Below, piece after piece: positions 10,912 to 45,488 of a stretch of 46,085 nucleotides of DNA. The translations under genes were made by a program, and so were the position numbers. Positions within the stretch are counted from its first letter, which is position 1. The number at the start of each line of letters is the position of its first letter. Under the pieces are notes generated by a model. That model was given only the letters and a program-made list of their open reading frames with translations. It made no database searches and had not been told where the DNA came from. This stretch comes from a virus, in the IMG/VR virus record IMGVR_UViG_3300005546_000008, positions 1 through 46,085 of that record; one strand, written 5' to 3'.

Positions 10912-10913
10912 TG

Positions 10914-11602: not shown

Positions 11603-11635
11603 CCTTAGCCCCTACAGAGTGTATATTAGGCAGTA

Positions 11636-12361
11636 ATGGCTAAGCCTCAGCGTATCTTCATCGTCCCCGACCTTCACTGTCCCTATCACGACCCAAAGGC
11701 GGTGTCACTTGCAAAACAACTCTTCGACTCCTACAAGCCCGACCTCACTATTTTCATCGGAGATAACCGTGACTTTATCTGGGCTTCCAGGTTCTTCGTT
11801 CCTCATAAGGAACGAGAAGGAGCGGTCGTTCGTGAGCTTCGAGCTTGGGCCACAGTCTCCGACCTCTTTAAAGCAGAAACTATTCGCCATCTGCGCGGAA
11901 ATCATGAAGGACGAATACTCGAATACCTCGACAAGCACCCCGAACTCGAAGGCCTAGAAGGCTTCACTCCCTCAACCCTCTACCCAGGACTCATCAAAAA
12001 TGACTTCATCGCGCTTGCTAATGGGAGTTTCATCGTTACTCACGGAAGCATCGTCCGCAGCAGTCCCGGAGCCAGCGCCGCTGCTGAAATGCAAAAGTGG
12101 GGTAGGTCTGGTTGTTCCGGGCACACGCACCGACTCTCGCGATATTATAAGCGCGACTATAGTGGAATCAAGCTGTGGGTGGAATGTGGCCATCTGGCGC
12201 TCAACCCCCCGCATTATAGAAGGATGAACAACCCGGCTCCTGAGAACTGGCAACAAGGTGTGGTTATCATAGAAACGGAGGGGAACAGGTTCCATGCGGA
12301 GGAGATCCCCTTCACCCTCAAATATCGCGCAATGTTGCGCGGGAAATGGTTCTCCGCCTAA
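11636..12361 (+). CDS. Calcineurin-like metallophosphoesterase
   Basis: All the signature motifs are in order: VPDLHCPYHD (DxH), FIGDNRDF (GDxxD), LRGNHEGR (GNHE), VTHGS, GHTHR (GHxH). Confidence 0.75.
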   Translation: MAKPQRIFIVPDLHCPYHDPKAVSLAKQLFDSYKPDLTIFIGDNRDFIWASRFFVPHKEREGAVVRELRAWATVSDLFKAETIRHLRGNHEGRILEYLDKHPELEGLEGFTPSTLYPGLIKNDFIALANGSFIVTHGSIVRSSPGASAAAEMQKWGRSGCSGHTHRLSRYYKRDYSGIKLWVECGHLALNPPHYRRMNNPAPENWQQGVVIIETEGNRFHAEEIPFTLKYRAMLRGKWFSA

Positions 12362-12454
12362 CCCCCTCAATATCTTCCCCGTAGCTGACCCCGCTCCACC
12401 CCCTGACGCTTATGATCGTGAAGATGACTCCTACTTCAAGCGAGGATTAAAATT

Positions 12455-13791: not shown

Positions 13792-14892
13792 ATGAAAAAG
13801 TTGGTCATATGTACCATCATCTTGCGCATACTATCCGCGATACCCAGTATAGCTGCTGTAGGCCCTCAACCCACCGCAGTTGTGCTGCTTAAGTTTGCTG
13901 ATCATTCCGAGGAACCTTGCAGCCCCGCTAATGCAGCTACTCTCGTATTCAACCAATATAGCCAGTGGCTCCAGGCTGAATCCAGGGGCCAAGAATGGCT
14001 CACGGGGGGACCCGCCTGGGGGTGGTGGACGCTACCCCACAACCTCTCCTACTACTGTCCCGCTGGAAGTGGTAGCTGCCTCAACTACTCCCTCCTCCTA
14101 GATGCAGACGCCCTAGCCGTAGCGCATGGCTACAGCGAACACTGGAACAGACGCCTCACCGTCCTCTACCTAAATACAGACGGCTTCACAGGTACCTCGG
14201 GGGATGCGCAGATTGTTTGGGCACCATGTCCTGAGTTGACTGGTGCGCAAGCTACGTACATCCTGCGTCACGAAGGCGGTCACGCACAGGGACTCCCCCA
14301 CGCCAACTCGTGGACGTGCACAGATGCGGATGTTGGGGAGGATTATGTCAACGTTATCTACCAAAACACCCTCACCTGCAAGTGGAGTGAGTATGGGGAT
14401 AAGTATGATCCCATGGGGTTCGCGGCTGGGCCGTTGACTCATTACGCGTTGAAGTATCAGACTGACTTAGGATGGCGTTCTGCGGCCAACATCAAGACTA
14501 CCACAGCGAGTGAGAGTGTTACACTCGCCCGCGCCGACGCCACCACCCCCTTCACGCAAGAGGTCCGCATCCCAATCCCTAGTGTGCCTGACTACTTCTA
14601 CTCCCTCGAATACTGGGTAGACAACGGGGTGCTCATCCGCTTCAACTCACCACGAGGCTCCGGTATCCTCAGCCTTGTCAACAACACCTGGCCGAACGCT
14701 TGGGAATACTCCAGCGCGGTCACAGCAGCAAATCCATTCTACGATCCTTACCGGCACATTTCAGTCCAGCTTATCTCAAGCACCTCAACCTCTGCCACTC
14801 TCACCATCAACATGGCGGCAACGAGTGCGCCGCTACCTCCTCCACCTCCCACTCCTCCCCCCACCCACGGGCACAAGAAGGGGAATAGATAA
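13792..14892 (+). CDS. Secreted metzincin-type zinc metalloprotease (gametolysin/M11-like)
   Basis: Signal-peptide-like N-terminus (MKKLVICTIILRILSAIPSIAAVGP). Exact metzincin zinc signature HEGGHAQGLPH (HExxHxxGxxH). Pro-rich basic tail. The track's longest ORF starts at GTG 13786. Confidence 0.6.
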   Translation: MKKLVICTIILRILSAIPSIAAVGPQPTAVVLLKFADHSEEPCSPANAATLVFNQYSQWLQAESRGQEWLTGGPAWGWWTLPHNLSYYCPAGSGSCLNYSLLLDADALAVAHGYSEHWNRRLTVLYLNTDGFTGTSGDAQIVWAPCPELTGAQATYILRHEGGHAQGLPHANSWTCTDADVGEDYVNVIYQNTLTCKWSEYGDKYDPMGFAAGPLTHYALKYQTDLGWRSAANIKTTTASESVTLARADATTPFTQEVRIPIPSVPDYFYSLEYWVDNGVLIRFNSPRGSGILSLVNNTWPNAWEYSSAVTAANPFYDPYRHISVQLISSTSTSATLTINMAATSAPLPPPPPTPPPTHGHKKGNR

Positions 14893-17473: not shown

Positions 17474-17734
17474 ATGAGTCTCAAAGCAAAACTAATCTTA
17501 ATCGCCCTTGGAGTGGTAGTGTGCGCCCTCCTAGGCCTCTCCCTCTACTGCAAGGGGAAGAAAGTTGGAGCGGTGCAGGTGAAGCAGGTTGACCTCCGCA
17601 AGGAGCTTGATGACCTCGATAGGGAGAAGCATGAGATTAAAACTAACGTCCACGCTCTTGATACTAATGCTCTCCGCACTCGCATCCTCGATCTCAGCAG
17701 CAGAATCCACGAAGAAGCCGCCCACGCCAAGTAA
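17474..17734 (+). CDS. Small membrane-anchored coiled-coil protein (i-spanin-like)
   Basis: 86 aa. Transmembrane segment LILIALGVVVCALLGLSLY followed by a charged coiled coil. TGGAG Shine-Dalgarno. Confidence 0.45.
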   Translation: MSLKAKLILIALGVVVCALLGLSLYCKGKKVGAVQVKQVDLRKELDDLDREKHEIKTNVHALDTNALRTRILDLSSRIHEEAAHAK

Positions 17735-17957
17735 GGTATGCTTCAGCGCTGAGGAAGCGGGGCGCATCGCCACCAGCATGGTCGAGGCGCTTGCTGAGCT
17801 TAAGCGTAGGCAAGGTGAGATTGATATGCTGCGAGCTACCAAGCCTGCAAGGTTTGGGTGGACTGTGGGTGCAGGATTAGGCATGGGGTACGACTTCCAA
17901 TATCAACGTGCAGATGTGGAACCCTTTGTTGGAGTAGTTTGGGGGATTCGATTCTGA
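17631..17957 (+). CDS. Secreted small protein encoded in an alternate frame, overlapping the 3' half of 17474..17734 (o-spanin-like position, no lipobox)
   Basis: ATG at 17631 with an AGGGAG Shine-Dalgarno 4 nt upstream. Near-ideal signal peptide MRLKLTSTLLILMLSALASSISA/AE. The C-terminus FGWTVGAGLGMGYDFQYQRADVEPFVGVVWGIRF ends in an aromatic residue, like outer-membrane beta-signals. Confidence 0.45.
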   Translation: MRLKLTSTLLILMLSALASSISAAESTKKPPTPSKVCFSAEEAGRIATSMVEALAELKRRQGEIDMLRATKPARFGWTVGAGLGMGYDFQYQRADVEPFVGVVWGIRF

Positions 17958-18256
17958 CGTTTCACCAACGCATCCTTCACCCACCCCCGCTGCATCTTCC
18001 TCCACGTTTCCCCACGCGCCTCTTTTTTACCATCAGGTTCTTTGGGCATCATACTTAAAGAACCTCCATGGTCCCACCATGCGTATATCTCCCTAGCCCA
18101 CTTTATCTGCTTAGCACTAAGTCCACATCTTCCACCCACATAATTGAGTTGATATCTAGGTACGCCCATCAGCGCAATCTCCTCCCCGTACACGCCAGCC
18201 TGTGAATCCGCTGCCCCTCCACATTCGCCACCACCACCGCCGCACATCTCAAACAC
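17903..18256 (-). CDS. Hypothetical protein, last ORF of the leftward block. It overlaps 18169..18471 by 88 nt.
   Basis: 117-aa ORF with a GTG start just after an in-frame TAA. It contains CGGGGGECGG and KQIKWAREIYAWWDHGG. Its 3' end overlaps the convergent gene 17631..17957 by 55 nt. Confidence 0.3.
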   Translation of the reverse strand: MFEMCGGGGGECGGAADSQAGVYGEEIALMGVPRYQLNYVGGRCGLSAKQIKWAREIYAWWDHGGSLSMMPKEPDGKKEARGETWRKMQRGWVKDALVKRQNRIPQTTPTKGSTSAR

Positions 18257-30823: not shown

Positions 30824-31024
30824 ATGAGCGATCCTCATATAGACCCGCCTATTAAGCACATACCGATAAAACACTGTTCAGCTTGCGGTGATTATGCACT
30901 AGGCGGTTCTGATTATTGCCTGCGGCATACCGCAGTGTATGATAGCCTCATAGGTGAAAGTACGGATTGGGCTAGTGGCTTAGTCCCTGTTGATAAGGTA
31001 AAGGCGTGTGCCAGCCACGATTGA
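30824..31024 (+). CDS. Small zinc-finger protein, first gene of the rightward block
   Basis: The ATG at 30824 lies about 8 nt after the -10 box at 30811..30816. Translation MSDPHIDPPIKHIPIKHCSACGDYALGGSDYCLRH carries CxxC...CxxH. Confidence 0.45.
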   Translation: MSDPHIDPPIKHIPIKHCSACGDYALGGSDYCLRHTAVYDSLIGESTDWASGLVPVDKVKACASHD

Positions 31025-31598
31025 TGCTAGCAAGCGACTTGAAATACTCACCCTACGCAAAGCGGGCAATACCTTTACGCAAATTGCTGCGCAAGTTGGT
31101 GTTCATGAGCAAACAGCTATGCGTGTGTTCGCCCGCTACAAGGACACACAACCCGCTTCCCTGGCAGCTAAGATTGCAAGTAAAGAGCGCATCCTAGAGC
31201 GTATGACTACTATACTGGAAAGTGCTGATAAGACTACAGATAGCATCGCGGCAGGCAAACTTATAGCGCTCATGCAGGGGTATTTGACCCCTGAACAAGG
31301 CCGCGCTGCGCAGGTGAATATTAACATGCTAGGTGGAAGCGTGGACATCAGCGCTATGGAGCGTGAATACGAAGCGCTACGTGCCCCTACAACGCACGCG
31401 CACACGCTAGTTGATACCTCACCCTCGCCTAACGCTAATGATGCGATTGTAGGCCAACGTGGCGAGAATGGGGCGCTATTAGGCTCGGTGGGAGATTCTT
31501 TGGGAGGGGTGGAGCCCCCCAGCAAGTTGGAGTCGAACACGTTAAGCTCCTCCCTAGATTTTCTTGAAAATTCTGGCAAGGGTGATGACCAAAAGTGA
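31008..31598 (+). CDS. Helix-turn-helix DNA-binding protein; small terminase subunit candidate
   Basis: GTG start. RLEILTLRKAGNTFTQIAAQVGVHEQTAMRVF is a classic HTH, followed by a helical middle region. It lies at the head of the packaging and structural operon. Confidence 0.4.
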   Translation: MPATIDASKRLEILTLRKAGNTFTQIAAQVGVHEQTAMRVFARYKDTQPASLAAKIASKERILERMTTILESADKTTDSIAAGKLIALMQGYLTPEQGRAAQVNINMLGGSVDISAMEREYEALRAPTTHAHTLVDTSPSPNANDAIVGQRGENGALLGSVGDSLGGVEPPSKLESNTLSSSLDFLENSGKGDDQK

Positions 31599-32273: not shown

Positions 32274-32915
32274 ATGCGCGTCGCCGTCACAGGTTCCACA
32301 GGAAGGTTAGGGAAGGAGATTCACAAACTCCGTCCTAATTTCGTCGCTTTGGGCCACGATGTAACCTCATTTTGGGGTATAAGCGGCGGATTCGACACCT
32401 TGATCCACCTTGCAGCGATGACCCACGTTCCAACGTGCGAGCGCGAACGCGACCTAGCGTGGAAAGTGAACGTGGTGGGTACTGCCAATGCGGTCGAGTG
32501 GTGTCTCCGCACAGGCTGCAAGATGGTGTACATGAGTTCCTCATATGCAGTGAATCCGGTGAATTGGTATGGACGGACGAAGAGGTGTGGGGAGATAATT
32601 GCATCTCATGCCGCTGGAGGCCTTATCGTTCGCAGCCAGTTCAAAGAACGCCCCTACCCCTACAATATAGCCCCCACCGACGCATACGCCAGGGCAATGT
32701 ACGCGGATGAGGTTGCAAATGAGTTGGTTAAGCTCGTTGAGGGAGAAACTTCGGGAATTGTTGGTATTTGGGGAAAGCGACGAAGTTTGTTTGACTTCGC
32801 CCGAGAATCAAGAAGTGACGTTAAACCCTGCCTTCGACGAGATCTACCCCATACTATCCCAGCCGATGCTTCTCCAGAAGCCAGTTCACAAGGATCATCG
32901 CGGGTGGGTGTATGA
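32274..32915 (+). CDS. rmlD: Short-chain dehydrogenase/reductase resembling dTDP-4-dehydrorhamnose reductase (RmlD-like), unusually short at 213 aa
   Basis: MRVAVTGSTGRLGKEI is a Rossmann GxxGxxG motif. IHLAAMTHV, MSSSYAV and the catalytic YGRTK (YxxxK) are present. LIVRSQF matches the RmlD IxRTSW segment. Confidence 0.55.
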   Translation: MRVAVTGSTGRLGKEIHKLRPNFVALGHDVTSFWGISGGFDTLIHLAAMTHVPTCERERDLAWKVNVVGTANAVEWCLRTGCKMVYMSSSYAVNPVNWYGRTKRCGEIIASHAAGGLIVRSQFKERPYPYNIAPTDAYARAMYADEVANELVKLVEGETSGIVGIWGKRRSLFDFARESRSDVKPCLRRDLPHTIPADASPEASSQGSSRVGV

Positions 32916-33213
32916 GGCGTGGCGAGGTTCTAATGGGTTCCAGTGTAAACAGGTTACCCTCGTTGGATGTGAGCGAGGAATCTGGAAGGGGGCGCATTAT
33001 CACCCCACTAAAAACTCCCTCTGGGCGTGCGTTGCTGGACGCGTGCTTGCACGAGTCGGAGAAGCCATCATACCTCTCAAAGCTGGAGATGGAGTACTTG
33101 TGTATATACCGGCGACTATTGCCCACGATATCATGGGACTTGAGCGAAGAAACGTCATCGTGGAACTAGATAGCGCTGAGTTCGTGGAAGGGGATAAGGT
33201 GAGGGTAGTATGA
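32815..33213 (+). CDS. rmlC: Cupin resembling dTDP-4-dehydrorhamnose 3,5-epimerase (RmlC-like), short. Start uncertain.
   Basis: LLQKPVHKDHRGWVYEAW matches the RmlC segment with the conserved D-x-RG-x-F. GIWKGAHYH matches G-x-hydrophobic-RG-hydrophobic-H-x-Q. Candidate starts are GTG 32815, ATG 32866 or the track's 32707. All overlap the RmlD-like gene. Confidence 0.5.
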   Translation: MTLNPAFDEIYPILSQPMLLQKPVHKDHRGWVYEAWRGSNGFQCKQVTLVGCERGIWKGAHYHPTKNSLWACVAGRVLARVGEAIIPLKAGDGVLVYIPATIAHDIMGLERRNVIVELDSAEFVEGDKVRVV

Positions 33214-33302
33214 TTATTCTACTAGTTATACCTGTTGGTATATTTTTATATTGGTTACTGGATCGGGAAGGATTAGCTGGTGGTCATTATGATGATTTCT
33301 AA
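33210..33302 (+). CDS. 30-aa hydrophobic micro-ORF in an AT-rich spacer (tentative)
   Basis: ATGA overlap with the RmlC-like stop, and its TAA abuts the rmlB ATG. Translation: MIILLVIPVGIFLYWLLDREGLAGGHYDDF. Confidence 0.25.
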   Translation: MIILLVIPVGIFLYWLLDREGLAGGHYDDF

Positions 33303-34289
33303 ATGAGAATCCTAGTAACGGGGGGATTTGGGTTCATCGCCTCCGAGTTGGTACGCCAACTTGTTGAGAAGGGTGATACTATTGCCGTTGTGGACCCCAT
33401 CACCTACGCAGCCTCTATGGATAACTTAGCTGATGTAGAGGGAAAATTCGAGCATTACATATGCGGGGTTGAAGATCCCGATATTCACTCTCTCCTCGCC
33501 CACTTCAAGCCTGAGATTATCTACCACGCTGCGGCTGAGAGCCACGTTGATAGGAGCCTCAACTCCTACAAAGCCTTCGTAGACACCAACATCACCGGCA
33601 CCTTCAACCTCATTGAGGCAGTGAGGGTGCATGCACCAACATGTAAGTTTGTGTATGTGAGCACGGATGAGGTGTATGGCTCCTTACCCGAGGGGCGCGC
33701 CACTGAGGGTTCACCCCTCAACCCCACTAATCCCTACAGCGTAAGCAAAAGTGCCGCTGAACATACGGTTAGGGCCGCCGCGCATACCTGGGGACTCAAT
33801 TTTGTAATCACAAGGAGCTGCAACAACTATGGCCCACGGCAACATCCCGAGAAGCTCATCCCTCATGCTATCACCAAACTCCTCAGTGGAGAAGCAATCC
33901 ACCTCCATGGTGACGGGGGGAACATCAGAGAGTGGGTATATGTGGCGGACAACGTCCGAGGGATTATTGCGGCCGCGGATAGTGGTGTATTGGGAGAAAC
34001 CTACAACGTCACTACAGCGATTGCTCAGACGAATAAGGAGATTGTTTACCTCCTCGCTAACAAGTTAGGTGTCATCCCCAACATCGAATACGTCCCTGAT
34101 CGCCCCGGCAACGACCTCCGCTACGCTATGACTTCCGCCAAACTTCGCCTCCTTGGCTGGAAGCCTGAAGAAACTCTCGATAGTGGTATTGATAAGACAA
34201 TCGCGTGGTACGAAAAAAGCAAGATGTGGTGGAGCAGCAAATCGACGCCGCTCTCCAAGCCCAGCGGGTCCAAAAGCTCCAACAGCTAA
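33303..34289 (+). CDS. rmlB: dTDP-glucose 4,6-dehydratase (RmlB)
   Basis: MRILVTGGFGFIASELV (GxxGxxG), YHAAAESHVDRS, VSTDEVYG, the catalytic YSVSKSAAE (YxxxK) and SCNNYGPRQHPEKLIP are all hallmark RmlB segments, present in order. Confidence 0.85.
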   Translation: MRILVTGGFGFIASELVRQLVEKGDTIAVVDPITYAASMDNLADVEGKFEHYICGVEDPDIHSLLAHFKPEIIYHAAAESHVDRSLNSYKAFVDTNITGTFNLIEAVRVHAPTCKFVYVSTDEVYGSLPEGRATEGSPLNPTNPYSVSKSAAEHTVRAAAHTWGLNFVITRSCNNYGPRQHPEKLIPHAITKLLSGEAIHLHGDGGNIREWVYVADNVRGIIAAADSGVLGETYNVTTAIAQTNKEIVYLLANKLGVIPNIEYVPDRPGNDLRYAMTSAKLRLLGWKPEETLDSGIDKTIAWYEKSKMWWSSKSTPLSKPSGSKSSNS

Positions 34290-35839
34290 TCCACCACGCT
34301 AAGCGGGAGAAGTGTCGCACCGACCTATATTGGCTTTGTACAGAGATATTGTACAAGGATGACTGCTTAGACTACAAAGCTAAAACAGGTTTGGATCTCT
34401 ACGATGAGGTATACCACCGTGCCATGTGCGCTGCCGTACAAGCTCCCGCTCGCAAAAAGCTGCACTTATACGCTAGAAATACATTTAAATCCTACGTGGT
34501 CACTGTGGGAGACACTGTACGAAAGCTCCTCATCGATCCCAATGAGCGGATTGTACTGGGTAACGTCAAGCTCGACAACGCCCGCCAACTCCTCCAGCAT
34601 GTTAGGCACCTCTTCTGCAACAACGAACGCTTAAAGGCGCTTTTCCCCGAATATGTTCCAAAGACTCTTGCGGAGATGGGTACTAAGGATCAGTTTACAG
34701 TCCCCTGCCGTACCAAATTTTATCGCGAGGCCTCTATTACGGCTGTTTCTACTGGTTCTCGCATGGCTGGACCGCATTTCAGCGGGGCGAAGATAGATGA
34801 TCCGATTGATCATGAAAACTGCACCACCGAGGAGCAGCTCCTCCAAACGAAAGAATGGTGGGAGAGGTTCCAGTATTTGCTTGATCCAGGATCATGGGTG
34901 GACGTCGTTGGAACCATATACCACTATCAGGATCTTTACGCCGACCCGATTATCTCTCGCGGCGATTACGTCATTCATCGTGTCCCTATCGCGTACAAGA
35001 AAGAAGGCGGCGAGTGGCAGTCGCGCTTCCAAACCCGCTGGCCGTGGGAGCGCCTCGAAAAGATGATGAACTCCGAGGACTCCTCGGAGCAGTGGAACTT
35101 CTGGCATCAGATGATGCTTGAGCCCAAGAACATCGGGGATGTGAAGTTCGACCCCACCTGGATAAGAGAGGTTAGGCCTTCGCAGATTCCCAACAACTTA
35201 GGCCACATCATCACCATAGACTCTGCTTGGAAGGGAGAGGAAACTCGGGGTAAAGGTGACTACACTGCTATTCAGGTATTTGGATTTGATAATCTGGGGC
35301 ACATTTACCGCCGCGATTGCGTGTATTCTAATAAGCTCGACATTCTTCAAGGCATTACTGCGATATGTGATCTCATGGCTAAGTGGAGATCGTCCACGGT
35401 AGTGATTGAGGCAGTGGGGCAGGATACCTTCTCGCGCCCCTTTCGTGAGGAATGCAGCAGGAGAGGGTTAGGGTTAAGGTTGGTGATGCCCAAGCGCGAC
35501 GTGAAAACCAAAAAGGGCGACCGCATTATGGGCCTCCAACCTTATTTCAAACTGGGGCAGTTTTTGATGGTTGAGGGGTGCCCCTTCAACAAAGAGTTTG
35601 TGACTCAGCTTACCTGCTTCCCCAACACAGCGCATGACGATTTGATAGATGGTGCAGCGGATGTGCTGCTGGATGATGTAAAGGTTATGCCTCGCGGCCA
35701 CTATCGTGATGATGATTGGGGCTCCCCCCTTCGCCCAGCTTCAAGTGAAGGTGAGGACCGCACCCGCGCATATGCCGCACAGCAAGAAAAATTCAAAAGT
35801 AGTGTTGTGGGCGTGATTCGCCCGGATTGGACCCATTGA
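34205..35839 (+). CDS. terL: Terminase large subunit
   Basis: LHLYARNTFKSYVV is a deviant Walker A of the PRG-x-x-KS type. The C-terminal RNaseH-like nuclease has IITIDSAWKGE, TAIQVFGFD and AHDDLIDGAADVL. It lies directly upstream of the portal gene. The GTG start overlaps the rmlB 3' end by 85 nt (alternatives GTG 34226 and 34229). Confidence 0.8.
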   Translation: MVRKKQDVVEQQIDAALQAQRVQKLQQLIHHAKREKCRTDLYWLCTEILYKDDCLDYKAKTGLDLYDEVYHRAMCAAVQAPARKKLHLYARNTFKSYVVTVGDTVRKLLIDPNERIVLGNVKLDNARQLLQHVRHLFCNNERLKALFPEYVPKTLAEMGTKDQFTVPCRTKFYREASITAVSTGSRMAGPHFSGAKIDDPIDHENCTTEEQLLQTKEWWERFQYLLDPGSWVDVVGTIYHYQDLYADPIISRGDYVIHRVPIAYKKEGGEWQSRFQTRWPWERLEKMMNSEDSSEQWNFWHQMMLEPKNIGDVKFDPTWIREVRPSQIPNNLGHIITIDSAWKGEETRGKGDYTAIQVFGFDNLGHIYRRDCVYSNKLDILQGITAICDLMAKWRSSTVVIEAVGQDTFSRPFREECSRRGLGLRLVMPKRDVKTKKGDRIMGLQPYFKLGQFLMVEGCPFNKEFVTQLTCFPNTAHDDLIDGAADVLLDDVKVMPRGHYRDDDWGSPLRPASSEGEDRTRAYAAQQEKFKSSVVGVIRPDWTH

Positions 35840-38286: not shown

Positions 38287-38318
38287 GCGTAAGACGCGCT
38301 CGGTAGATGGGAGAGGAA

Positions 38319-39191
38319 ATGTCGCAGGTAGTTAGTTTTAGTCCGGTTATGAAAGATGGGCAGCTTGATCTAGGGCATGGGGATTTGGATGGTACTAACG
38401 TTGAGGGTGTGGGGCAGCAGACTACACCGGGGAATACTAACTTTGATGATGGTTCTAACGTGGCGCAGTTGAGTAGTCAGGTTAATCCGTGGGAGGTTCC
38501 CACGAATGAGCCTGTTACAGCCCCACAGGTTGTGCAGGCGCAGCCTCAGTCTAATCCCCTTGCAGATGAGATTGCCCACCTCAAAAAGATTGTGGGCGAC
38601 CAGGGTAACCAAATTGGGGAATATAGGAAGCTGCTTAATACCCTCGCTTCCCAAACTCAGCCTCAGCAGCAGCATATGGGGTTTGCGCCTCAGCAGGCTG
38701 CTCAGCGCATCATCAACACCCCCAATCCCGATGACTATCCCACCGCCCGCCAGATTGAGGAAGGTGTTATGCGAGTGGGGCAAGTCTTGTATGAATCCCT
38801 CCAATCCCAGCTTCAGGAGACGGCTGCTAAGGCCCAACTTGCTGCTGCTGGTATCACCCCCGAGGAGCAGCAACTCCTCGAACTCCAGTACCCCGGCCTC
38901 CGCACCATGGACGCCAATACTCGCGCAGGCGTGGTTAGCGCACTCGCGAAGAGTAAGCGTCTTGAAACGCAGGCCTTCACAGCCGCCAATACCCAAGCTA
39001 CTGCTCAGGTAGCCGCGCAGGGCGTCAGGCAGCGTGTCTTTGTAGAACAGCCTCAAGCGTACACCAACGTACCCTCAGCCGGTCAAACCGTCGATATGGA
39101 CGCCTTTGGTAAGCTCAACTCCAAACAAATGGAGGAAGCTCTCAAAAAGATGGGCGTCCCTAGAGTGGATGATTGGAACCGGCGAGGATAA
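38319..39191 (+). CDS. Scaffolding protein
   Basis: It lies between portal and capsid genes. Gln/Ala-rich helical sequence. The ATG at 38319 follows a GGGAG Shine-Dalgarno (alternative ATG 38307). Confidence 0.55.
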   Translation: MSQVVSFSPVMKDGQLDLGHGDLDGTNVEGVGQQTTPGNTNFDDGSNVAQLSSQVNPWEVPTNEPVTAPQVVQAQPQSNPLADEIAHLKKIVGDQGNQIGEYRKLLNTLASQTQPQQQHMGFAPQQAAQRIINTPNPDDYPTARQIEEGVMRVGQVLYESLQSQLQETAAKAQLAAAGITPEEQQLLELQYPGLRTMDANTRAGVVSALAKSKRLETQAFTAANTQATAQVAAQGVRQRVFVEQPQAYTNVPSAGQTVDMDAFGKLNSKQMEEALKKMGVPRVDDWNRRG

Positions 39192-39205: not shown

Positions 39206-40174
39206 ATGGCTTCTCCAACAATTACCTCAATTGCGAGATTGGTACCCACGTACTATGATCGCCTTCTTTTGGACAACCTCTACCCCGACCTCTACCTTTG
39301 GCAGTTCGGGGAGAAGCGCAAGGTTCCGCCCAACAGTGGTAAGACTATTCTGTTCAACAAGTGGACTAAGCTGACGCTTGGTAACTTCGTTACAGAAGGT
39401 ACTCCGATTGGAACTTGCGCCATGTCAGCGTCGCTCGTGTCCACGACTCTCTCCGGCTTCGCGCTCGCCGTGAAGCACTCCGACTTCCTCGTCATGACCG
39501 CCATCAGCGACGTGATCGCGGGGTCAGTACAGGAAGTCTCGAAGAGCCTCGCCCTCAAGATCGACTCGCGCATCCGCCAGGTCATCAGTGGACTCGGCAC
39601 GCAGATCACCGCCTGCGTGGTTAGCGTGGCGGGTTCCGCTGTCGTGGGTAAGCTGAAGAATGGAGACCGCCTCAAGGCTCGCGAGGTTGTTCGTTCGCTG
39701 CGTACCCTCAACGTCAACAACGCCAAGACCTTCCCAGACGGATTCTTCGGGATGGTGCTGCACCCCTATCAGTTGTGGGATATCCAGGGGGATACCTCAA
39801 CGGGTGGTTGGATCGACATCAACAAGTACGCCTCCAACGACACGGTGCAGAATTTGTATCGTGGAGAGGTTGGACAACTCTATGGATTCAGGGTTGTGCG
39901 TAGCACCAACGTTAAGGCCGGTCTCGCCGCTTCTCCCGCTTCCGCCGCCAACTCCGCCTACATGGGCTTCGCTATGGGTCCGGGCGCATATGGAGTTGTG
40001 GAGCTTGATGAGGGTAGCGCGAGAGTGTTCGTGAAGCAGCTTGGTTCCTCCGGTACGGCTGACCCTGTTAACCAGCTTGCCACTGTGGGAGCTAAGATCT
40101 ACTTCAGCGCCGTTAACCTCGATTGCACGAACCGCCTCGTTACCATCAGTTCGGGCAAGTCCACCGCGTTGTAA
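39206..40174 (+). CDS. Major capsid protein (HK97 fold)
   Basis: 322 aa. LYPDLYLWQFGEKRKVPPNSGKTILFNKWTKL and GFALAVKHSDFLVMTA fit the conserved N-terminal layout of podovirus major capsid proteins. It follows the scaffold gene. Confidence 0.75.
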   Translation: MASPTITSIARLVPTYYDRLLLDNLYPDLYLWQFGEKRKVPPNSGKTILFNKWTKLTLGNFVTEGTPIGTCAMSASLVSTTLSGFALAVKHSDFLVMTAISDVIAGSVQEVSKSLALKIDSRIRQVISGLGTQITACVVSVAGSAVVGKLKNGDRLKAREVVRSLRTLNVNNAKTFPDGFFGMVLHPYQLWDIQGDTSTGGWIDINKYASNDTVQNLYRGEVGQLYGFRVVRSTNVKAGLAASPASAANSAYMGFAMGPGAYGVVELDEGSARVFVKQLGSSGTADPVNQLATVGAKIYFSAVNLDCTNRLVTISSGKSTAL

Positions 40175-40185
40175 GGGAGGCTTTC

Positions 40186-40473
40186 ATGGCTGATCAGTTT
40201 GCCAGCAAGCCCGGTAAGGATCAAGGTTTCGACCCCCGCAACAACCAAGCTCAGACTGTCCCCGCTGGGAGAATTGGACAGGAGTATCCTTCAATCCCCC
40301 CTGACGCCGATCTCGCTGTGTGGGACGATGAGTACAATTACGACCCCAGCATTGCACGTAAAGTGCCACGCAATGGGGTGGAATGCACCGCCCACGCACT
40401 CTTCCACTCTAAGGGAGTGAGTGTGGATAATGATCAAAACACTAAGTATGTTTACAAGCCAGGAAAGGGATAG
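40186..40473 (+). CDS. Hypothetical protein (capsid-associated by position)
   Basis: ATG at 40186 with an AGGGAGG Shine-Dalgarno. 95 aa. Confidence 0.5.
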   Translation: MADQFASKPGKDQGFDPRNNQAQTVPAGRIGQEYPSIPPDADLAVWDDEYNYDPSIARKVPRNGVECTAHALFHSKGVSVDNDQNTKYVYKPGKG

Positions 40474-40475
40474 TT

Positions 40476-40685
40476 ATGAGTGAGAATCCTGCACAGAACG
40501 CTGCTTCCGGCCCGCCCAATGTTGGCCCGCGTATTGGGGGCACCTCCCCCAACCACGTTGGTCCCTCGGGGATGGGAACTGAGGGTGGCGCTATTGGAGT
40601 TATCACGGCGATGAATGTTGATGCGGAGAGTTTCCCCGTTAACATGCGTACCGTGAATGAGCCCGAGGGTGAGTTTCTGAAGTAG
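40476..40685 (+). CDS. Hypothetical Gly/Pro-rich small protein
   Basis: 69-aa ORF with a purine-rich GGAAAGGGA Shine-Dalgarno-like stretch upstream. Confidence 0.45.
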   Translation: MSENPAQNAASGPPNVGPRIGGTSPNHVGPSGMGTEGGAIGVITAMNVDAESFPVNMRTVNEPEGEFLK

Positions 40686-40704
40686 TCCCGACAGGACGAG
40701 TTAG

Positions 40705-40727
40705 GGGGGATCTCGCCAAAATCCCCC
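40705..40727 (+). terminator. GC-rich hairpin after the capsid gene block (candidate partial terminator)
   Basis: GGGGGAT (40705-40711), loop ctcgccaaa, ATCCCCC (40721-40727), followed by acccctttc. It sits in one of the few intergenic gaps (40686-40746). Confidence 0.4.
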
Positions 40728-40746
40728 ACCCCTTTCAAGGAGAGTT

Positions 40747-41124
40747 GTGGCTAGCGGGTTCCACGGAAGTATGCCAGCAGAGGTGTTTAAGGGGCTTATT
40801 GAGCGCGCTAACCCCACCGATAAGGCCCTCAAGTTTGAGGTGTCGCGCATGAATGGATACCGCAACGCGGGGTTGTATCGCGATGATCAATACATCATGG
40901 GCGTGACGCGCAACGAATTCCCTGAATACACCGTGAGAAGCGCGGATGACGGGATTGAAGCGTTAGGGTGGAGGGAAGCACTAACCTCTCTTCTCCTTGA
41001 AGGGTATATCAAGGTAACCCCCGAGATTGTAACATGGTTGGGGATGGATGGAGTGGCGTACGCACTCTCGCCGCGTGGGGGGGAGTGGATTCCTAACGAG
41101 AAAGAGAGTATAATTATAAAATGA
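40747..41124 (+). CDS. Hypothetical protein
   Basis: GTG start 2 nt after an AAGGAGAG Shine-Dalgarno. 125 aa. ATGA overlap with the first glycosyltransferase gene. Confidence 0.5.
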   Translation: MASGFHGSMPAEVFKGLIERANPTDKALKFEVSRMNGYRNAGLYRDDQYIMGVTRNEFPEYTVRSADDGIEALGWREALTSLLLEGYIKVTPEIVTWLGMDGVAYALSPRGGEWIPNEKESIIIK

Positions 41125-41891
41125 GCTACCCCACTATAAGCTGTATCATCTCCACCTATAACCGAGCTAACTTCCTCCGCCGCGCCCTTGCAAGCGTTCT
41201 CGCTCAAGATATCAAAGAGGAGATTGAATGTGTGGTTGTGGATGATGCATCTACAGATTCAACCTTCGATGTGGTGAAGAGTTTCGATAAGGCGTTCACC
41301 CTCAAGGGAATACCCCTCCTATTTTACAAGTTGGGCGAGAATAGCGGCTATCAGTGCAAGCCTAAGAATGTGGGGGTGCAGCATTGCAATGGGGAGTTTA
41401 TCGCCTATCTTGATGATGACAACGTATGGAAGCCTAACCACCTCCGCGAACTCTTCACCGCCATCATAGAGAAAGAAGTGGATATGGTGTATGGGATGAG
41501 GGAGTATAAGGCTATGGAGGGGTATGATCCTATCCACCTGGGAAAGAAGCTCTCCCTCGGTCCCTCTCCCATATTCCCCTTTGAGGTGGAGCGGCTTGAG
41601 CAAGGTAACTTCATCGACACCAGCGATATCATGCACACGAAGGGCGCCTATTACCTCCTCGCTTCCAAAACTGAGTGTGGCTGGGATGAGGAGATGCGCC
41701 GCTTCGCAGACTGGAACTTCGTCTATCGCTGGGCTAAGGTGGGATTAAGCGCCGCACCCGTCTATAGGATACTTACCGAGTATTGGTGGCATGGACAAAA
41801 CTTGCAGCTTACTCGCCCCGTTATGGAGCAGCCCCTTGCTGTAGGGAGGTTTGACCTTGAAAATAGCGGTCTACACACTAACGCGGGATAG
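41121..41891 (+). CDS. Family 2 glycosyltransferase (GT-A fold)
   Basis: ISCIISTYNRANFLRRALASVLAQ, ECVVVDDASTDST and FIAYLDDDNVW (DxD) are the canonical GT2 N-terminal motifs. Confidence 0.8.
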   Translation: MSYPTISCIISTYNRANFLRRALASVLAQDIKEEIECVVVDDASTDSTFDVVKSFDKAFTLKGIPLLFYKLGENSGYQCKPKNVGVQHCNGEFIAYLDDDNVWKPNHLRELFTAIIEKEVDMVYGMREYKAMEGYDPIHLGKKLSLGPSPIFPFEVERLEQGNFIDTSDIMHTKGAYYLLASKTECGWDEEMRRFADWNFVYRWAKVGLSAAPVYRILTEYWWHGQNLQLTRPVMEQPLAVGRFDLENSGLHTNAG

Positions 41892-42534
41892 GCTGCACGA
41901 TACTCAGCGAACCTTCGCACTCCTTAAAGAGATGGCGGGGATGGAATATGACCACTACGTTATGGATAACGGAAGTGTGGACGGAACTAACAAGTGGCTC
42001 GCAGGGCAGGGGCTCCACTACCTCAACCTCTCCCTTGACAATAAAGGCCAGTGTATAAGCTCCAACATGCTCATTGATGCTATCCTAAACAGTGGCATCA
42101 GCTATGACTACATTGTTAGGTTGGATAACGACATTACCCCCAAGACTGACAACTTCTTGGCCCGCTCCATCGAAGCGCAGCAGGAACTCGGAAAAGGGTG
42201 TGTATTGTCACCTGATATCATCGGTCTCAATCATAAGCCTAAGTCCTTTGGGAACCACGCTACTGTCCACTTTAAGTATGATTTCGTGGAAGCTCTAGGT
42301 GGTGCGTGTAGAGTCACTCTTCCCAGCGTGTGGGATAGTTTTCGTTTCTCCATCCACGGCCCCCTAGCCTTGGGGGAAGCTCAACAGATTAGTGTGTATT
42401 GCCACGCCGAAAACCTCCCCATGGTATACGTTAAGGATATCGTAATCGAGCACATCACCGACAACCACTTCCGCGACAACCCCGAATACTTCAGGCGCCG
42501 CAGGATGGAGGAGTTTGTTCCTTATGGACTCTAA
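41857..42534 (+). CDS. GT-A-type glycosyltransferase-like protein
   Basis: TTG at 41857 lies 7 nt after GGGAGG (MKIAVYTLTRDRL). The protein has HYVMDNGSVDGT and YIVRLDNDI (DxD-like). It overlaps the upstream GT2 gene by 35 nt. Confidence 0.55.
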   Translation: MKIAVYTLTRDRLHDTQRTFALLKEMAGMEYDHYVMDNGSVDGTNKWLAGQGLHYLNLSLDNKGQCISSNMLIDAILNSGISYDYIVRLDNDITPKTDNFLARSIEAQQELGKGCVLSPDIIGLNHKPKSFGNHATVHFKYDFVEALGGACRVTLPSVWDSFRFSIHGPLALGEAQQISVYCHAENLPMVYVKDIVIEHITDNHFRDNPEYFRRRRMEEFVPYGL

Positions 42535-43090
42535 GCCCAAGGTAATAATGGACTTCGACGACCTCTGCGACACTTACGATCCCTTCAATATGCTATGCAC
42601 CCTGAAAGAAAACGACCCCGAGTTTAAGGTTACACTCTTCACCATCCCCAAGCGCTGCAGCAAAACTCTCCTCAAGAAGTATGCTAAAGAGAAGGATTGG
42701 ATTGAGCTTGCTATGCACGGATGGTGGCACACATACGGGGAGACGCTAAGCTGGACAAAGGAGGAGGCACTAGACAAGATGCGTATCTCCTTCGATATGG
42801 GCATCGACGGCAAAGGATTCAAAGCCGCCAAGTGGGTCATCGACCCTGTGGTGTACGAAGCCGCTAAGGAGCTAGGTTGGTATGTGGCTGACCATAAAAC
42901 TAATCGTTACCGTATTCCTACTGAGGGTGAGAGGATATATATCAGTGATCTTAGGTTAAGGGATGGTAAGGAGCGCCGCCTCCACGGCCACACCCGTAAC
43001 GTCTGCGACAATGGCATTGAGGAGGCTTTCCCCCTCTTCATGCTCCCAAGGGGGAAGTTTGAATACCGCTTCATATCAGAAGTGTGTTAA
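42524..43090 (+). CDS. Polysaccharide deacetylase-like protein (DUF2334/NodB-like)
   Basis: VIMDFDDL...FKVTLFTIP...ELAMHGWWH fits the DD...TLF-x-IP...E-hydrophobic-x-x-HG-x-x-H layout of DUF2334-type predicted deacetylases. The track's longest ORF starts at TTG 42515. Confidence 0.4.
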   Translation: MDSKPKVIMDFDDLCDTYDPFNMLCTLKENDPEFKVTLFTIPKRCSKTLLKKYAKEKDWIELAMHGWWHTYGETLSWTKEEALDKMRISFDMGIDGKGFKAAKWVIDPVVYEAAKELGWYVADHKTNRYRIPTEGERIYISDLRLRDGKERRLHGHTRNVCDNGIEEAFPLFMLPRGKFEYRFISEVC

Positions 43091-43688
43091 GGATGATACT
43101 TACTACACCAAAGTTCAAGCCGAGCACAACGACGTAAGCGGCTTCTGGGTGAACCGCGCTCTCTACGCAGCTAAGAACTTCCTTGAGGTGGTGGGAGCTA
43201 ACCTGTTTGATGATGACACCGTTGCGGACTTTGGCTCGCGCACAGGGTATGTTGCAGACATGCTCAAGCGTATAACCTCCCTCAACCCTATCTGTGTGGA
43301 TATTAGCGCCGAACATATCAAGGTGTGTGAGAGTAAAGGTTTCCCCGCCTTCGCGGGTAGGATTGAGAATATGAGCTTTTTGCGGGATGGTGAGGTGGAT
43401 TGGGGATTTTGTTCGCACACGCTGGAGCATGTTAAGGATTACGACGCAGCGGTGAAGGAGCTTAATAGGGTGGTGAAGCGTGGGTTGTTTATCGTCATCC
43501 CAATGGAGCACGAAGATGCGGGGGATGCTAACCCCTCCCACATGCGCTTCTCTACCAACATCCACGACTACATCACCCCCTTCGAGGCGCTGGGGTGGAA
43601 GATGGGGTGGGAGTGTCCGCCTATCCCTAACGCTGAAGATTACGACCCCGAGAGCAGAAGCGACTACCAAGTTTGGTTGTACCGATGA
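43059..43688 (+). CDS. Class I SAM-dependent methyltransferase. Start uncertain.
   Basis: VADFGSRTGYVADML is motif I. VDWGFCSHTLEHVKDYDAAVKELNRVVKRGLFIV matches the Methyltransf_11-type motifs. There is no ATG or GTG between 43011 and 43150. The TTG at 43059 follows AAGGGGGA. The track ORF starts at 42963. Confidence 0.7.
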   Translation: MNTASYQKCVKDDTYYTKVQAEHNDVSGFWVNRALYAAKNFLEVVGANLFDDDTVADFGSRTGYVADMLKRITSLNPICVDISAEHIKVCESKGFPAFAGRIENMSFLRDGEVDWGFCSHTLEHVKDYDAAVKELNRVVKRGLFIVIPMEHEDAGDANPSHMRFSTNIHDYITPFEALGWKMGWECPPIPNAEDYDPESRSDYQVWLYR

Positions 43689-44824
43689 AAATACTCCAGC
43701 TTACTCACCAGAATATCCCCATCAACTACTACCGCCACTGGCAGTTTGCTAAGCACCTCAACGACATGGGCCACACTATCCTCACCCGCCCACACTCGTC
43801 ACTGTCCCCTTTTGGCTACAAGGACACCATCAACTACAAAGGTGTGAAGCGGGATTATTGTTTGGACTATGACTTCCTCGACGCTATTGCTCCAGGATGT
43901 GATGCGATATGGAGCACAATCTGTTATGAGCCTCACCGCCTCGCCACCCTCATGGCCGCACGTGAAGCTTATGGCATTCCCATCATCATCGACACTGATG
44001 ATTTGGTTACTGATATCCCCAAGTACAACGTCGCCCAGCAGAAGCTCACCTCCAAGAGTGACCGCATCAAGATTGCTCTAGCCGGATTCAGGCACGCAGA
44101 CGCCCTAACCACAACCTGTGCCTTTCTAGCTGAGGCGCTTAAGAAATATAACTCTAACGTGTTTATCACCGAGAATAACATCGAGCCCTCAACCTGGACA
44201 ATGGAGCGTAAGCCCACCCCCGCTAATGAAGTTAGAATCCTATGGGCAGGCTCAACCGCCCGCTATGGCGACATTCAGATGATCCGCCGCCCCCTCGAAA
44301 GCATCATCAAGCGCTACAAAGGAAGCAGCATCTGCGTTAAGCTAATCTTCATCGCCACTGTTCCTGACTTCGCTGTGGAGTGGATTGATGCAGGAGACGC
44401 ATTTGTGTTGCAGTGGGCGGACATGATTGATTACCAAGCTGTGACGCGCTACATCGCGCCCGACATTGGCTTAAGTCCCCTTGTTCCCAGCGACTTCAAC
44501 CGCTCTAAGAGTCCCCTCAAATACTTCGACTACACCATGATGGGGGCAGCGGGGGTATATAGCGATGAGTGTACCTACTCTTGCGTGGAGGATGGAGTCA
44601 CCGGCATCAAGCTAAAGGGCGACGCTGGGTGGGAAAGCGCCCTCATCAAACTCATCGAAAACCCCATCCTCCGCAAAGACATAATCCACGCCTCCTCTAA
44701 AGATGTGCTCGCCAATTACTCCATCCTGAAGAACGCTCCCCGCATCGCCTCCACACTGGAAGAAGCCGTCCATGTCGGAAGTTCTCATTGCGCCTCAGTC
44801 CGTTACCGGGCCAACGCCAGCTAG
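43685..44824 (+). CDS. GT-B-fold glycosyltransferase (GT1/GT4-like)
   Basis: The ATG at 43685 forms an ATGA overlap with the methyltransferase stop (MKILQLTHQNIP...). ILWAGSTARYGD opens the C-terminal Rossmann half. SPLKYFDYTMMGAAGVYSD...VEDGVTG fits the nucleotide-sugar-binding region. Confidence 0.6.
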   Translation: MKILQLTHQNIPINYYRHWQFAKHLNDMGHTILTRPHSSLSPFGYKDTINYKGVKRDYCLDYDFLDAIAPGCDAIWSTICYEPHRLATLMAAREAYGIPIIIDTDDLVTDIPKYNVAQQKLTSKSDRIKIALAGFRHADALTTTCAFLAEALKKYNSNVFITENNIEPSTWTMERKPTPANEVRILWAGSTARYGDIQMIRRPLESIIKRYKGSSICVKLIFIATVPDFAVEWIDAGDAFVLQWADMIDYQAVTRYIAPDIGLSPLVPSDFNRSKSPLKYFDYTMMGAAGVYSDECTYSCVEDGVTGIKLKGDAGWESALIKLIENPILRKDIIHASSKDVLANYSILKNAPRIASTLEEAVHVGSSHCASVRYRANAS

Positions 44825-45488
44825 ATTTGCAGACCTTAAAGATCAAGTAGCCCTCATCCTTGGCCGCCAACTAGACTCTCAGTCTCTCTATCGCTGCGGG
44901 CAGTTTATCAACCGCGTGATTAAGGAGCTTAATACCCGCCCGTGGAAAGCTCTTCTCACCGTGGGCTCCAACATCACCACCTCCACTGGTACCCGCACCT
45001 ACTCCCTAGACTCCCTCTTCTTCAAAGAGAGTAAGGTGCAGCGGCTTGATGACTCCTCCAAGCCCGCCTTCACCCTGCAATACCTAGACTGGGAACAGTA
45101 TCAAGCCCGCTACGACAGGCAGACTGATAGCGGCGCACCTTACATGTATACGCTCCGCAATGTAGATCAAGATGGGGTTATCGACTTCTACCCCGTCCCT
45201 GACCAAGCTTACACCATCACCGTCCAGTATTACGCCCGCATCCCCCAGCTTGTTAACAATGACGACACCCTCCTCATCCCTATTGAGTTTGAAAACTACA
45301 TTATCCTGAAGGCACAGTTTTACCTTCTTGATCTCTTCCACCACGAACGCTCAGCGGAGAAGTTTAAGTACTGCGAAAATGAAATGGCGAAGCTCATTAG
45401 GGTGGACGAAATCCACCCCGACGATACCCCCCGCTTCCGCCTCCCTATGCCAAAATCTACGTTCGGCACTATCTACATAAAGGTTTAA
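44772..45488 (+). CDS. Tail tubular protein A / adaptor-like structural protein (T7 gp11-like)
   Basis: It lies between the capsid block and the tailspike and nozzle genes. FINRVIKELNTRPWKALLTV...TYSL resembles the gp11 segment ILNKINRQIQSRGWTFN...ITLLP. 238 aa. Confidence 0.45.
   Translation: MSEVLIAPQSVTGPTPARFADLKDQVALILGRQLDSQSLYRCGQFINRVIKELNTRPWKALLTVGSNITTSTGTRTYSLDSLFFKESKVQRLDDSSKPAFTLQYLDWEQYQARYDRQTDSGAPYMYTLRNVDQDGVIDFYPVPDQAYTITVQYYARIPQLVNNDDTLLIPIEFENYIILKAQFYLLDLFHHERSAEKFKYCENEMAKLIRVDEIHPDDTPRFRLPMPKSTFGTIYIKV

Follow-up and report, generated by a model that had tools for sequence, protein, structure and literature searches.

The 46,085-base window analysed here, which is the whole stretch taken from the IMG/VR virus record IMGVR_UViG_3300005546_000008, is the essentially complete genome of a soil podophage. 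An identical contig of 46,146 bp is held in a metagenome assembly of the European Nucleotide Archive. Between the TerS-like and TerL genes (small and large terminase subunits) of this genome lie three co-directional genes. They encode a short RmlD-like member of the short-chain dehydrogenases/reductases (SDR), a very small cupin and RmlB, a deoxythymidine diphosphate (dTDP)-glucose 4,6-dehydratase (Table 1). We lean towards reading them as a three-enzyme nucleotide-sugar module that would be expressed with the packaging and head genes and would feed the glycosyltransferases of the phage.

An earlier reading of the letters of the window (the original prediction) had placed three tightly packed open reading frames (ORFs) in this interval, and both the placement and the packing were borne out. 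The cupin frame is open from 32707 to 33213. The SDR and cupin genes overlap by 50 nt, the cupin stop codon overlaps the ATG of a 30-aa ORF, the stop codon of that ORF abuts the ATG of RmlB, and RmlB overlaps TerL by 61-85 nt. The 30-aa ORF has a hydrophobic N-terminus (MIILLVIPVGIFLYWLL...). It is missing from three related contigs (L001, L016 and L017), in which the cupin and RmlB genes overlap or abut, and it probably does not belong to the conserved module.

RmlB aligned with the family profile TIGR01181 from residue 2 to residue 311 of 328 (profile positions 1-319 of 321), and all other families gave far lower scores. It also matched PF16363 and PF01370 with E values of 1e-57 to 1e-61. 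The translation carries TGGFGFIAS, STDEVYG and YSVSK, which are the glycine-rich NAD motif, the Thr-Asp-Glu motif and the YxxxK motif. All of its top matches among PDB sequences were characterised dTDP-glucose 4,6-dehydratases, with DesIV at 257 bits; mimivirus R141 scored 185 bits. It was 41-44% identical to annotated phage RmlB proteins and 40-47% identical to cellular relatives, which were taxonomically scattered. By its sequence, RmlB is a genuine dTDP-glucose 4,6-dehydratase of the bacterial type, and its closest relatives suggest that it acts on dTDP sugars and not on those of uridine diphosphate (UDP) or guanosine diphosphate (GDP). Its last 20-28 codons or so, which overlap TerL (34205-34289), encode a Ser/Lys-rich tail beyond the conserved WYEKSKMWW. 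This tail is divergent among relatives and is likely a by-product of the overlap.

The SDR matched RmlD_sub_bind with 53 bits (cutoff 27) over residues 1-120 only, and Polysacc_synt_2 with 62 bits. Its best NCBIfam match was rmlD (TIGR01214). An AlphaFold2 (AF2) model built on an alignment of 12 homologues had a mean predicted local distance difference test score (pLDDT) of 85.6 and a predicted TM-score (pTM) of 0.83. In a Foldseek comparison of this model with the PDB, the top 18 matches were all RmlD, with a TMq of 0.71-0.79; the TM-score normalised to the target was only 0.53-0.61. Glycines G7 and G10 of the GxxGxxG motif and the S88/Y99/K103 triad were invariant across the alignment. Compared with homologues of 277-313 aa, the SDR lacks 16 aa between the Ser and the YxxxK motif, 21 aa after a conserved PYPY, and most of the C-terminal tail. 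The short spacing between Ser and Tyr is like that of the PseB/CapE subfamily; the Asp-Lys pair of those dehydratases is absent. Differences across relatives were in excess at the third codon position, which indicates that the SDR is under purifying selection. Its close homologues (205-216 aa) were confined to related phage contigs. The nearest cellular relative, P0009, has 241 aa and 31% identity and lies within a glycan gene cluster; in our own judgement rather than by a search, the gene before P0009 has a C-terminus like that of a PseB/CapE-type 4,6-dehydratase. We also considered a CapF-type reductase and rejected it, because pairwise comparison of the SDR with the corresponding domain of a CapF-like protein gave no similarity. 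According to the structural model, the SDR is an RmlD-fold enzyme in miniature whose catalytic triad is intact. Most simply it would be a 4-ketoreductase, a role to which the fold and the triad point and whose substrate is proposed.

The cupin passed only one curated threshold, that of PF14667 (32.8 bits against a gathering cutoff of 28.7), which it matched with residues 8-105 over positions 1-101 of 111. It fell below both thresholds of the RmlC families, with 25.2 bits against 27 for PF00908 (dTDP_sugar_isom) and 14 against 155.75 for TIGR01221. It was also below the threshold of Pfam FdtA (PF05523; 14.6 bits against 23), with the HxH pair and H87 of the cupin present. When a cupin profile was compared with 1.84 billion representative proteins, only two clusters, each belonging to this phage group, fell below E 1e-10. 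Further matches began at E 2e-7 and were mostly cupins of 113-190 aa. PF14667 was matched by 58 of the 64 distant relatives, the RmlC family by 43 and the FdtA family by 42. Most of the ten closest distant relatives examined matched a CapF/WbjC-type NCBIfam model in its C-terminal cupin region (approximately 250-370), and others matched WbuC or RmlC-like models. The profile found nothing in the GTDB genomes and a single 1-kb contig in the metagenomes. Among PDB sequences, its matches were QdtA(R97H) (E 8e-5), Cap5F (2e-3), ChmJ (5e-3), RmlC (2e-2) and FdtA (6e-2). Profile comparison by hhalign gave scores of 165 for a CapF-type set, 140 for an RmlC-type set and 137 for a QdtA-type set, with probabilities of 99.6-99.9%; these sets overlap in membership, and the ranking is indicative only. 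The cupin was 40% identical over 57 aa to a CapF-like protein, and its KGAHYHPTKN matches KGNHWHHTKNE of Staphylococcus aureus CapF.

Seven cupin residues were invariant: H44, H46, H87, K49, E100, D102 and D110. H44 aligns with the catalytic His of RmlC (in RGLH). Glu100 aligns with the catalytic Tyr of both ChmJ and the RmlC of Klebsiella phage 05F01, and Ser51 aligns with the RmlC Lys. In RmlC family numbering, we take the catalytic residues to be His63, Tyr133 and Lys73. The cupin ends at about residue 143 of the 191 residues of RmlC, and the C-terminal 45 residues or so are absent. The H44/H46/H87 pattern also appeared in the alignments with CapF and QdtA(R97H). Stand-alone PF14667 cupins occur beside SDR and glycosyltransferase genes in cellular glycan clusters. 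One cellular contig (L019, 3120-7325) has such a cupin, P0031, after three consecutive extended-SDR genes and before GT2/GT-D-like genes. From these alignments and scores, we conclude that the protein is not a canonical RmlC and is probably a sugar-nucleotide cupin for a 4-keto-6-deoxyhexose. Its closest family appears to be the C-terminal cupin of CapF/WbjC (a C3-epimerase domain), with QdtA, ChmJ and RmlC about as close.

These results bear unequally on the original prediction, which had described an RmlB with its hallmark motifs, a short RmlD-like reductase and a short RmlC-like cupin in a rhamnose-type pathway. The RmlB was upheld. So was the reductase, with its RmlD structural matches and with its GxxGxxG motif and Ser-Tyr-Lys triad retained. 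For the cupin, the epimerase/isomerase superfamily and the catalytic His were upheld, but the assignment to RmlC was not, as only the His of the expected His/Tyr dyad is kept and the Tyr is replaced by the invariant Glu100. A rhamnose-type pathway is thus not established, since the cupin fails RmlC in both residues and scores. The caveat of the same prediction, that the product might be a sugar other than rhamnose, is the better reading.

The frame and start of the cupin gene were examined, as the cupin-frame ORF had given only weak family matches. In comparisons with the orthologous stretches of two related contigs, differences in the cupin frame were in excess at the third codon position (30/22/44, 17/13/30 and 21/18/48 by codon position), so the cupin frame is the coding frame. 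This bias ruled out an 85-aa ORF in an alternative frame (32912-33169) as a gene. The public assemblies of L006, L007 and L021 call that ORF, and not the cupin, between the SDR and RmlB; these calls are probably annotation errors. The most likely start, read from the sequence, is the ATG at 32866, which gives 115 aa. Most homologues share the N-terminus MLLQ, and third-position change is nearly absent from SDR codons 198-213, which lie in the cupin overlap, but in codons 145-197 it is like that elsewhere in the SDR. The shared N-terminus and the confinement of the constraint to codons 198-213 together make this start the most likely one. The usual ATG is lacking in two variants, and both have alternative start codons nearby. 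Upstream of the likely start, no stop codon interrupts the cupin frame for at least 50 codons in any variant (32644-32865 in the window). A 168-aa cupin starting at 32707 was not supported, because the normal third-position change in SDR codons 145-197 leaves no sign of dual coding upstream of 32866. A CapF-like fusion of the SDR and cupin by programmed frameshifting was not supported either, because synonymous change in the SDR is not depressed upstream of 32866. Conservation of the SDR codons probably accounts for the open stretch upstream.

The order TerS-like, small ORFs, SDR, cupin, RmlB and TerL, followed by the portal gene where the contig reaches it, recurs in six variants. The lengths and catalytic residues of the SDR and cupin were kept in all six. 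L017 has a cupin that is 96% identical to that of the window. The SDR is 82% identical in L008 and 70% identical in the soil contigs L001 and L002. In L021, RmlB is 50% and the cupin 65% identical. L016 is a 2-kb fragment from which the beginning of the locus is missing, and the gene at its end was not identified. The third-codon-position excess in the SDR and cupin spans relatives at 65-82% identity. Outside this group, a single-sequence TerL scan of IMG/VR found nothing, and a TerL profile scan found two distant phages, both without sugar genes. The module is stably kept under selection in one small clade, which has so far been seen in metagenomes only. In a related podophage, L014 (MW202554, 9804-12341), TerL is annotated as two coding sequences around a small ORF, and both match the TerL of the window. 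Possible causes are a split gene, an intervening element and an assembly artefact.

The absence of RmlA (the enzyme that makes dTDP-glucose) from the genome, as proposed originally, was supported in two ways. No NTP_transferase match was found in the scanned ORFs, which comprised all those of at least 200 aa except one antisense ORF inside the gene at 38307-39191. A six-frame tblastn search of the window with two phage RmlA proteins returned nothing better than E 0.5. As there is no RmlA, the phage would depend on host dTDP-glucose.

The glycosyltransferase cassette, which had been placed about 7 kb downstream, does begin 6.8 kb after RmlB on the same strand. It follows the capsid gene and three small ORFs (40186-41124), and its three glycosyltransferases sit between the capsid gene and the SU10-type adaptor gene. 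The PDB matches of the first were GT2 enzymes. The second, a divergent GT2-like protein, is kept in L001 and L008 with 54-55% identity. Next come a NodB-like protein and a methyltransferase, whose real start, inferred from the reading frame, is probably the GTG at 43086. The third glycosyltransferase matches a glycosyltransferase of the podophage MW202801 over 98% of its length. In relatives, the glycosyltransferases that open the cassette are retained for as much of the locus as is available. Hydrophobic segments of the membrane-protein kind are absent from all the cassette proteins, and the scanned ORFs yielded no flippase, polyprenyl-phosphate transferase, polymerase or ligase.

MW202801 (L013, from Manatee Spring) is a distant podophage whose capsid protein is 29% identical to that of the window. 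Directly after its capsid gene, a cassette at 8513-13176 has genes for an Fe-S oxidoreductase, a glycosyltransferase, a PhyH dioxygenase, a methyltransferase, a protein annotated as 'nodB-like protein' at the position equivalent to ours, and the homologous glycosyltransferase. Its tailoring chemistry differs from that of the window, and its genome position is the same. Since MW202801 has the cassette alone, the cassette is older and more widespread than the module, which was added by the clade of the window.

Table 1. Features of the sugar module, the glycosyltransferase cassette and their late-gene neighbours in the window
Feature	Position	Strand	Basis
TerS-like helix-turn-helix (HTH) protein, upstream boundary of module	31008..31598	+	HTH_23 E 3.6e-8; weak Sf6_terminase match
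Mini RmlD-like SDR, predicted NAD(P)H-dependent 4-ketoreductase, 213 aa	32274..32915	+	RmlD_sub_bind 53 bits
Mini cupin, 115 aa, predicted NDP-4-keto-6-deoxyhexose epimerase/isomerase (NDP, nucleoside diphosphate), CapF-C-terminal type	32866..33213	+	PF14667 32.8 bits
30-aa hydrophobic ORF in the cupin-RmlB gap	33210..33302	+	From sequence; Kyte-Doolittle 19-residue maximum 1.99
RmlB, predicted dTDP-glucose 4,6-dehydratase, 328 aa	33303..34289	+	TIGR01181 340.8 bits (cutoff 365.1), full length
Large terminase TerL, downstream boundary	34229..35839 (start 34205 or 34229)	+	phrog_38 E 3e-58
Major capsid protein, candidate glycosylation target	39206..40174	+	phrog_1357 E 1.7e-37
GT2 glycosyltransferase, GT-A fold, soluble	41121..41891	+	Glycos_transf_2 E 4.5e-27; PDB matches
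Second, divergent GT2-like protein	41851..42534	+	Glycos_transf_2 E 1.8e-3, below cutoff
NodB/polysaccharide-deacetylase-like protein, weak assignment	42515..43090	+	Polysacc_deac_1 E 4e-3, below cutoff
S-adenosylmethionine-dependent methyltransferase	42963..43688	+	Methyltransf_11 E 9.4e-13
Third glycosyltransferase	43673..44824	+	phrog_7162 'glycosyltransferase' E 6.5e-28
SU10-type adaptor	44772-45488

Around these genes, the genome is divided into two arms. The minus-strand arm (approximately 17.5-30.7 kb) carries replication genes, among them those for a family A DNA polymerase, a Dam methylase and AAA ATPases. On the plus strand is a long co-directional run with the TerS-like HTH protein, whose position is identical in all relatives, TerL, an SU10-type portal, the capsid and the SU10-type adaptor. 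Past the window origin, this run goes on to beta-helix depolymerase-like proteins, a GNAT acetyltransferase, an M23 peptidase and others. No near match at the DNA level was found among deposited phages, and the terminases of cyanobacterial podophages and Yersinia PY100-like phages shared only 21-29% identity with TerL. The window has no tRNA genes. Two right-handed beta-helix proteins are encoded on the plus strand (328-1896 and 14892-17462), one of them with a phage depolymerase C-terminal domain, which suggests tailspikes that degrade host surface polysaccharide. The GNAT acetyltransferase (6687-7181, plus strand) lies amid tail and structural genes and may be a further virion- or glycan-modifying enzyme; MW202801 has a GNAT at a comparable position (17507-18094), annotated as 'ribosomal-protein-L7/L12-serine acetyltransferase'. 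An M23 peptidase, a calcineurin-like metallophosphatase and an SBBP beta-propeller-repeat protein stand in a row in the late region (10363-13783, plus strand).

If the three genes do form a nucleotide-sugar module, RmlB would convert dTDP-D-glucose of the host by oxidation and dehydration into dTDP-4-keto-6-deoxy-D-glucose. The cupin might then rearrange the keto-sugar at C3, or at both C3 and C5, with His44 as the base and Glu100 replacing the Tyr of RmlC, and the SDR would reduce the C4 keto group with NAD(P)H. The product would be a dTDP-6-deoxyhexose. Its stereochemistry is not readable from sequence, and the candidates include 6-deoxy-D-allose, L-rhamnose and 6-deoxy-L-talose. The sugar would be passed to the three soluble glycosyltransferases, which would work with the methyltransferase and the NodB-like enzyme, and virion proteins would be decorated in the cytoplasm before or during assembly. 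We infer cytoplasmic glycosylation of virion proteins as the most economical reading. A more specific version is possible, and we hold it only tentatively: that this soil podovirus clade makes a rare, possibly O-methylated 6-deoxyhexose from host dTDP-glucose, by means of a minimal split CapF-like pair found essentially nowhere else, and glycosylates its own capsid or other virion proteins with it.

Several observations weigh against a module that feeds the cassette. The RmlB score for TIGR01181 is a near miss of the family cutoff, and the SDR, with 61.8 bits, is well under the rmlD cutoff of 224. A large part of the substrate-binding region of RmlD is absent from the SDR, so its substrate could differ. 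The cupin is without the Tyr and Lys of RmlC and the C-terminal Asp of its His-Asp dyad. The metal-ligand Glu of the CapF motif G-x5-H-x-H-x3,4-E-x6-G is also Ser51 in the cupin, at a position that varies within the family. The best single PDB match of the cupin is a 3,4-ketoisomerase variant, QdtA R97H, and its chemistry could be isomerisation instead of epimerisation. Its AF2 model had a pLDDT of 42, and the active site was read from alignments alone. Host supply of dTDP-glucose is an assumption. The module and the cassette are connected by co-occurrence and a shared strand only, and MW202801 has no nucleotide-sugar genes near its terminase, which implies that the cassette does not need the module. 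A scan for promoters and terminators gave a site count no higher than in shuffled sequence, and no transcription unit was defined by it.

Two of the alternatives concern the chemistry. The original prediction had favoured the canonical dTDP-L-rhamnose pathway, with the cupin as the RmlC 3,5-epimerase and the SDR as RmlD. Complete rmlBACD sets do exist in some phages, the SDR resembles RmlD above all in both structure and NCBIfam match, and the cupin keeps the catalytic His and reached an hhalign probability of 99.6% with the RmlC-like set. We nevertheless consider this pathway unlikely, because the cupin is under both RmlC thresholds, has Glu at the Tyr position and Ser at the Lys position, lacks the C-terminal part of RmlC and is scored higher by CapF-type cupins, and because the SDR is truncated and far below the rmlD cutoff. 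It is also conceivable that the cupin is an FdtA/QdtA-like 3,4-ketoisomerase and that the SDR reduces C3 of a dTDP-3-keto-6-deoxyhexose, which would give a sugar of the D-fucose, D-quinovose or 6-deoxy-gulose type. QdtA(R97H) was matched over nearly the full length, and the size of the cupin (115 against approximately 140 aa), its C-terminal D-x-x-R and its HxH pair with a third His are QdtA-like. We take this His pattern to match that of FdtA as well, from the structures of the Holden laboratory, and about two thirds of the distant relatives match Pfam FdtA (42 of 64). But the phage cupin itself is below the FdtA threshold, the CapF-type set was higher in hhalign, and the partner SDR has the fold of RmlD, which is a C4-reductase. 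Furthermore, 3,4-ketoisomerases are normally followed by an aminotransferase, and none was found among the scanned ORFs. Isomerisation to a 3-keto sugar is accordingly given a low probability.

The other two alternatives concern the purpose of the genes. They might be auxiliary metabolic genes that remodel envelope glycans of the host (O-antigen, capsule or S-layer) and not the virion, for example to block superinfection or to reduce the loss of progeny on cell debris. This is the usual reading of rmlB and rmlD genes in metagenomic phages, the best PHROG of the first GT2 is named 'GtrB-like O-antigen conversion', and the two beta-helix depolymerase-like proteins suggest a host coated with polysaccharide. 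Remodelling of the host is still a doubtful explanation here. The cassette proteins are without membrane segments, and of flippases, polyprenyl-phosphate transferases, polymerases and ligases none was found among the scanned ORFs; the genes lie inside the packaging and head module on the strand of the structural genes; a cassette after the capsid gene is present also in the distant MW202801; and no integrase was found among the scanned ORFs. Finally, the SDR and cupin might be decaying remnants of RmlD and RmlC, with RmlB alone functional, as both are shorter than their families and below the family cutoffs. We regard decay as very improbable, since both genes show the third-codon-position excess among relatives and keep their lengths and catalytic residues in six variants, and since the SDR is modelled confidently as a complete Rossmann domain. 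Of all these readings, the nucleotide-sugar module feeding phage glycosyltransferases is the one that we prefer.

If the more specific version given above is true, donor synthesis and glycosylation of the virion would be coupled for the first time in a tailed phage that is not an actinobacteriophage, the SDR would be the smallest known RmlD-fold reductase and the cupin a Glu-dependent sugar-nucleotide cupin. If the preferred reading is confirmed, small tailed phages would be able to encode by themselves the whole path that leads from a nucleotide sugar of the host to an altered virion surface, and virion glycosylation would extend beyond the mycobacteriophages, with a bearing on host recognition, particle stability and evasion of immunity or defence. 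The 213-aa reductase and the 115-aa cupin would then also be of use in glyco-engineering and in working out the minimal catalytic core of their families. If the product were plain rhamnose on host glycans, the locus would be one more set of phage auxiliary sugar genes.

Phage-encoded rml genes and glycosylation of phage virions are already known. What is new here is, on the evidence of the sequences, the two miniaturised partner enzymes, notably an almost clade-restricted cupin with Glu for Tyr, together with the lack of RmlA, the placement between the terminase genes and the pairing with a capsid-adjacent cassette in a podovirus. Among the known rml sets, rmlB, rmlA, rmlC and rmlD are annotated in a row in Klebsiella phage 05F01, RmlB is carried by many large coliphages (for example in Phapecoctavirus records), and rmlB and rmlD are counted among the auxiliary genes of phages in metagenomic surveys. 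The set of 05F01 resembles ours in being phage-encoded, in an RmlB that is 44% identical and in the logic of a cupin followed by an RmlD-fold reductase. However, the cupins of the 05F01 and bacterial sets have approximately 180-190 aa and the reductases approximately 270-300 aa, against 115 and 213 aa here, and RmlA is present there. The order in the window is also different, namely reductase, cupin and dehydratase, and the genes lie between terS and terL and not among nucleotide-metabolism genes.

In CapF, the cupin domain carries out C3-epimerisation and the SDR domain C4-reduction of a 4-keto-6-deoxy sugar (PMC3699295). The CapF/WbjC/FnlB enzymes of UDP-L-FucNAc (UDP-N-acetyl-L-fucosamine) synthesis share with the window the order of SDR and then cupin, PF14667 and the KG-H-H-TKN motif. 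They differ in being one bifunctional polypeptide, whereas the window has two separate overlapping genes. The SDR of the window is RmlD-like and has no detectable similarity to the CapF SDR domain, and the partner dehydratase is RmlB (dTDP-glucose) here instead of CapE (UDP-GlcNAc, that is, UDP-N-acetylglucosamine). The ChmJ 3-epimerases and the FdtA/QdtA ketoisomerases share the cupin superfamily and the substrate class. ChmJ uses a His/Tyr pair, in which the Tyr is the residue that aligns with Glu100 of our cupin.

For glycosylation of the virion, PMC11256854 cites Freeman et al. 2023 for glycan groups on the major capsid proteins of the mycobacteriophages Che8 and Rita, and reads glycosyltransferase genes in a related mycobacteriophage as a sign of capsid glycosylation. 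The likeness lies in the phage-encoded glycosyltransferases, which in the window adjoin the capsid gene. Those phages are siphoviruses of actinobacteria, and the Maravista genome announcement mentions no genes for nucleotide-sugar synthesis. The window, in contrast, is a podovirus that seems to have its own 6-deoxysugar module, and its glycosylation is proposed from the genes. The original prediction had drawn an analogy with chloroviruses, which together with mimivirus offer the case of a virus making its own 6-deoxyhexose donor for virion glycans. Those viruses use a UDP-glucose 4,6-dehydratase and a bifunctional epimerase/reductase, an architecture different from that of the window, and the RmlB studied here is nearer to the bacterial dTDP-glucose enzymes than to mimivirus R141 (257 against 185 bits). 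The chlorovirus parallel gives way to closer precedents, which are the rml gene sets of phages and the virion glycosylation of mycobacteriophages.

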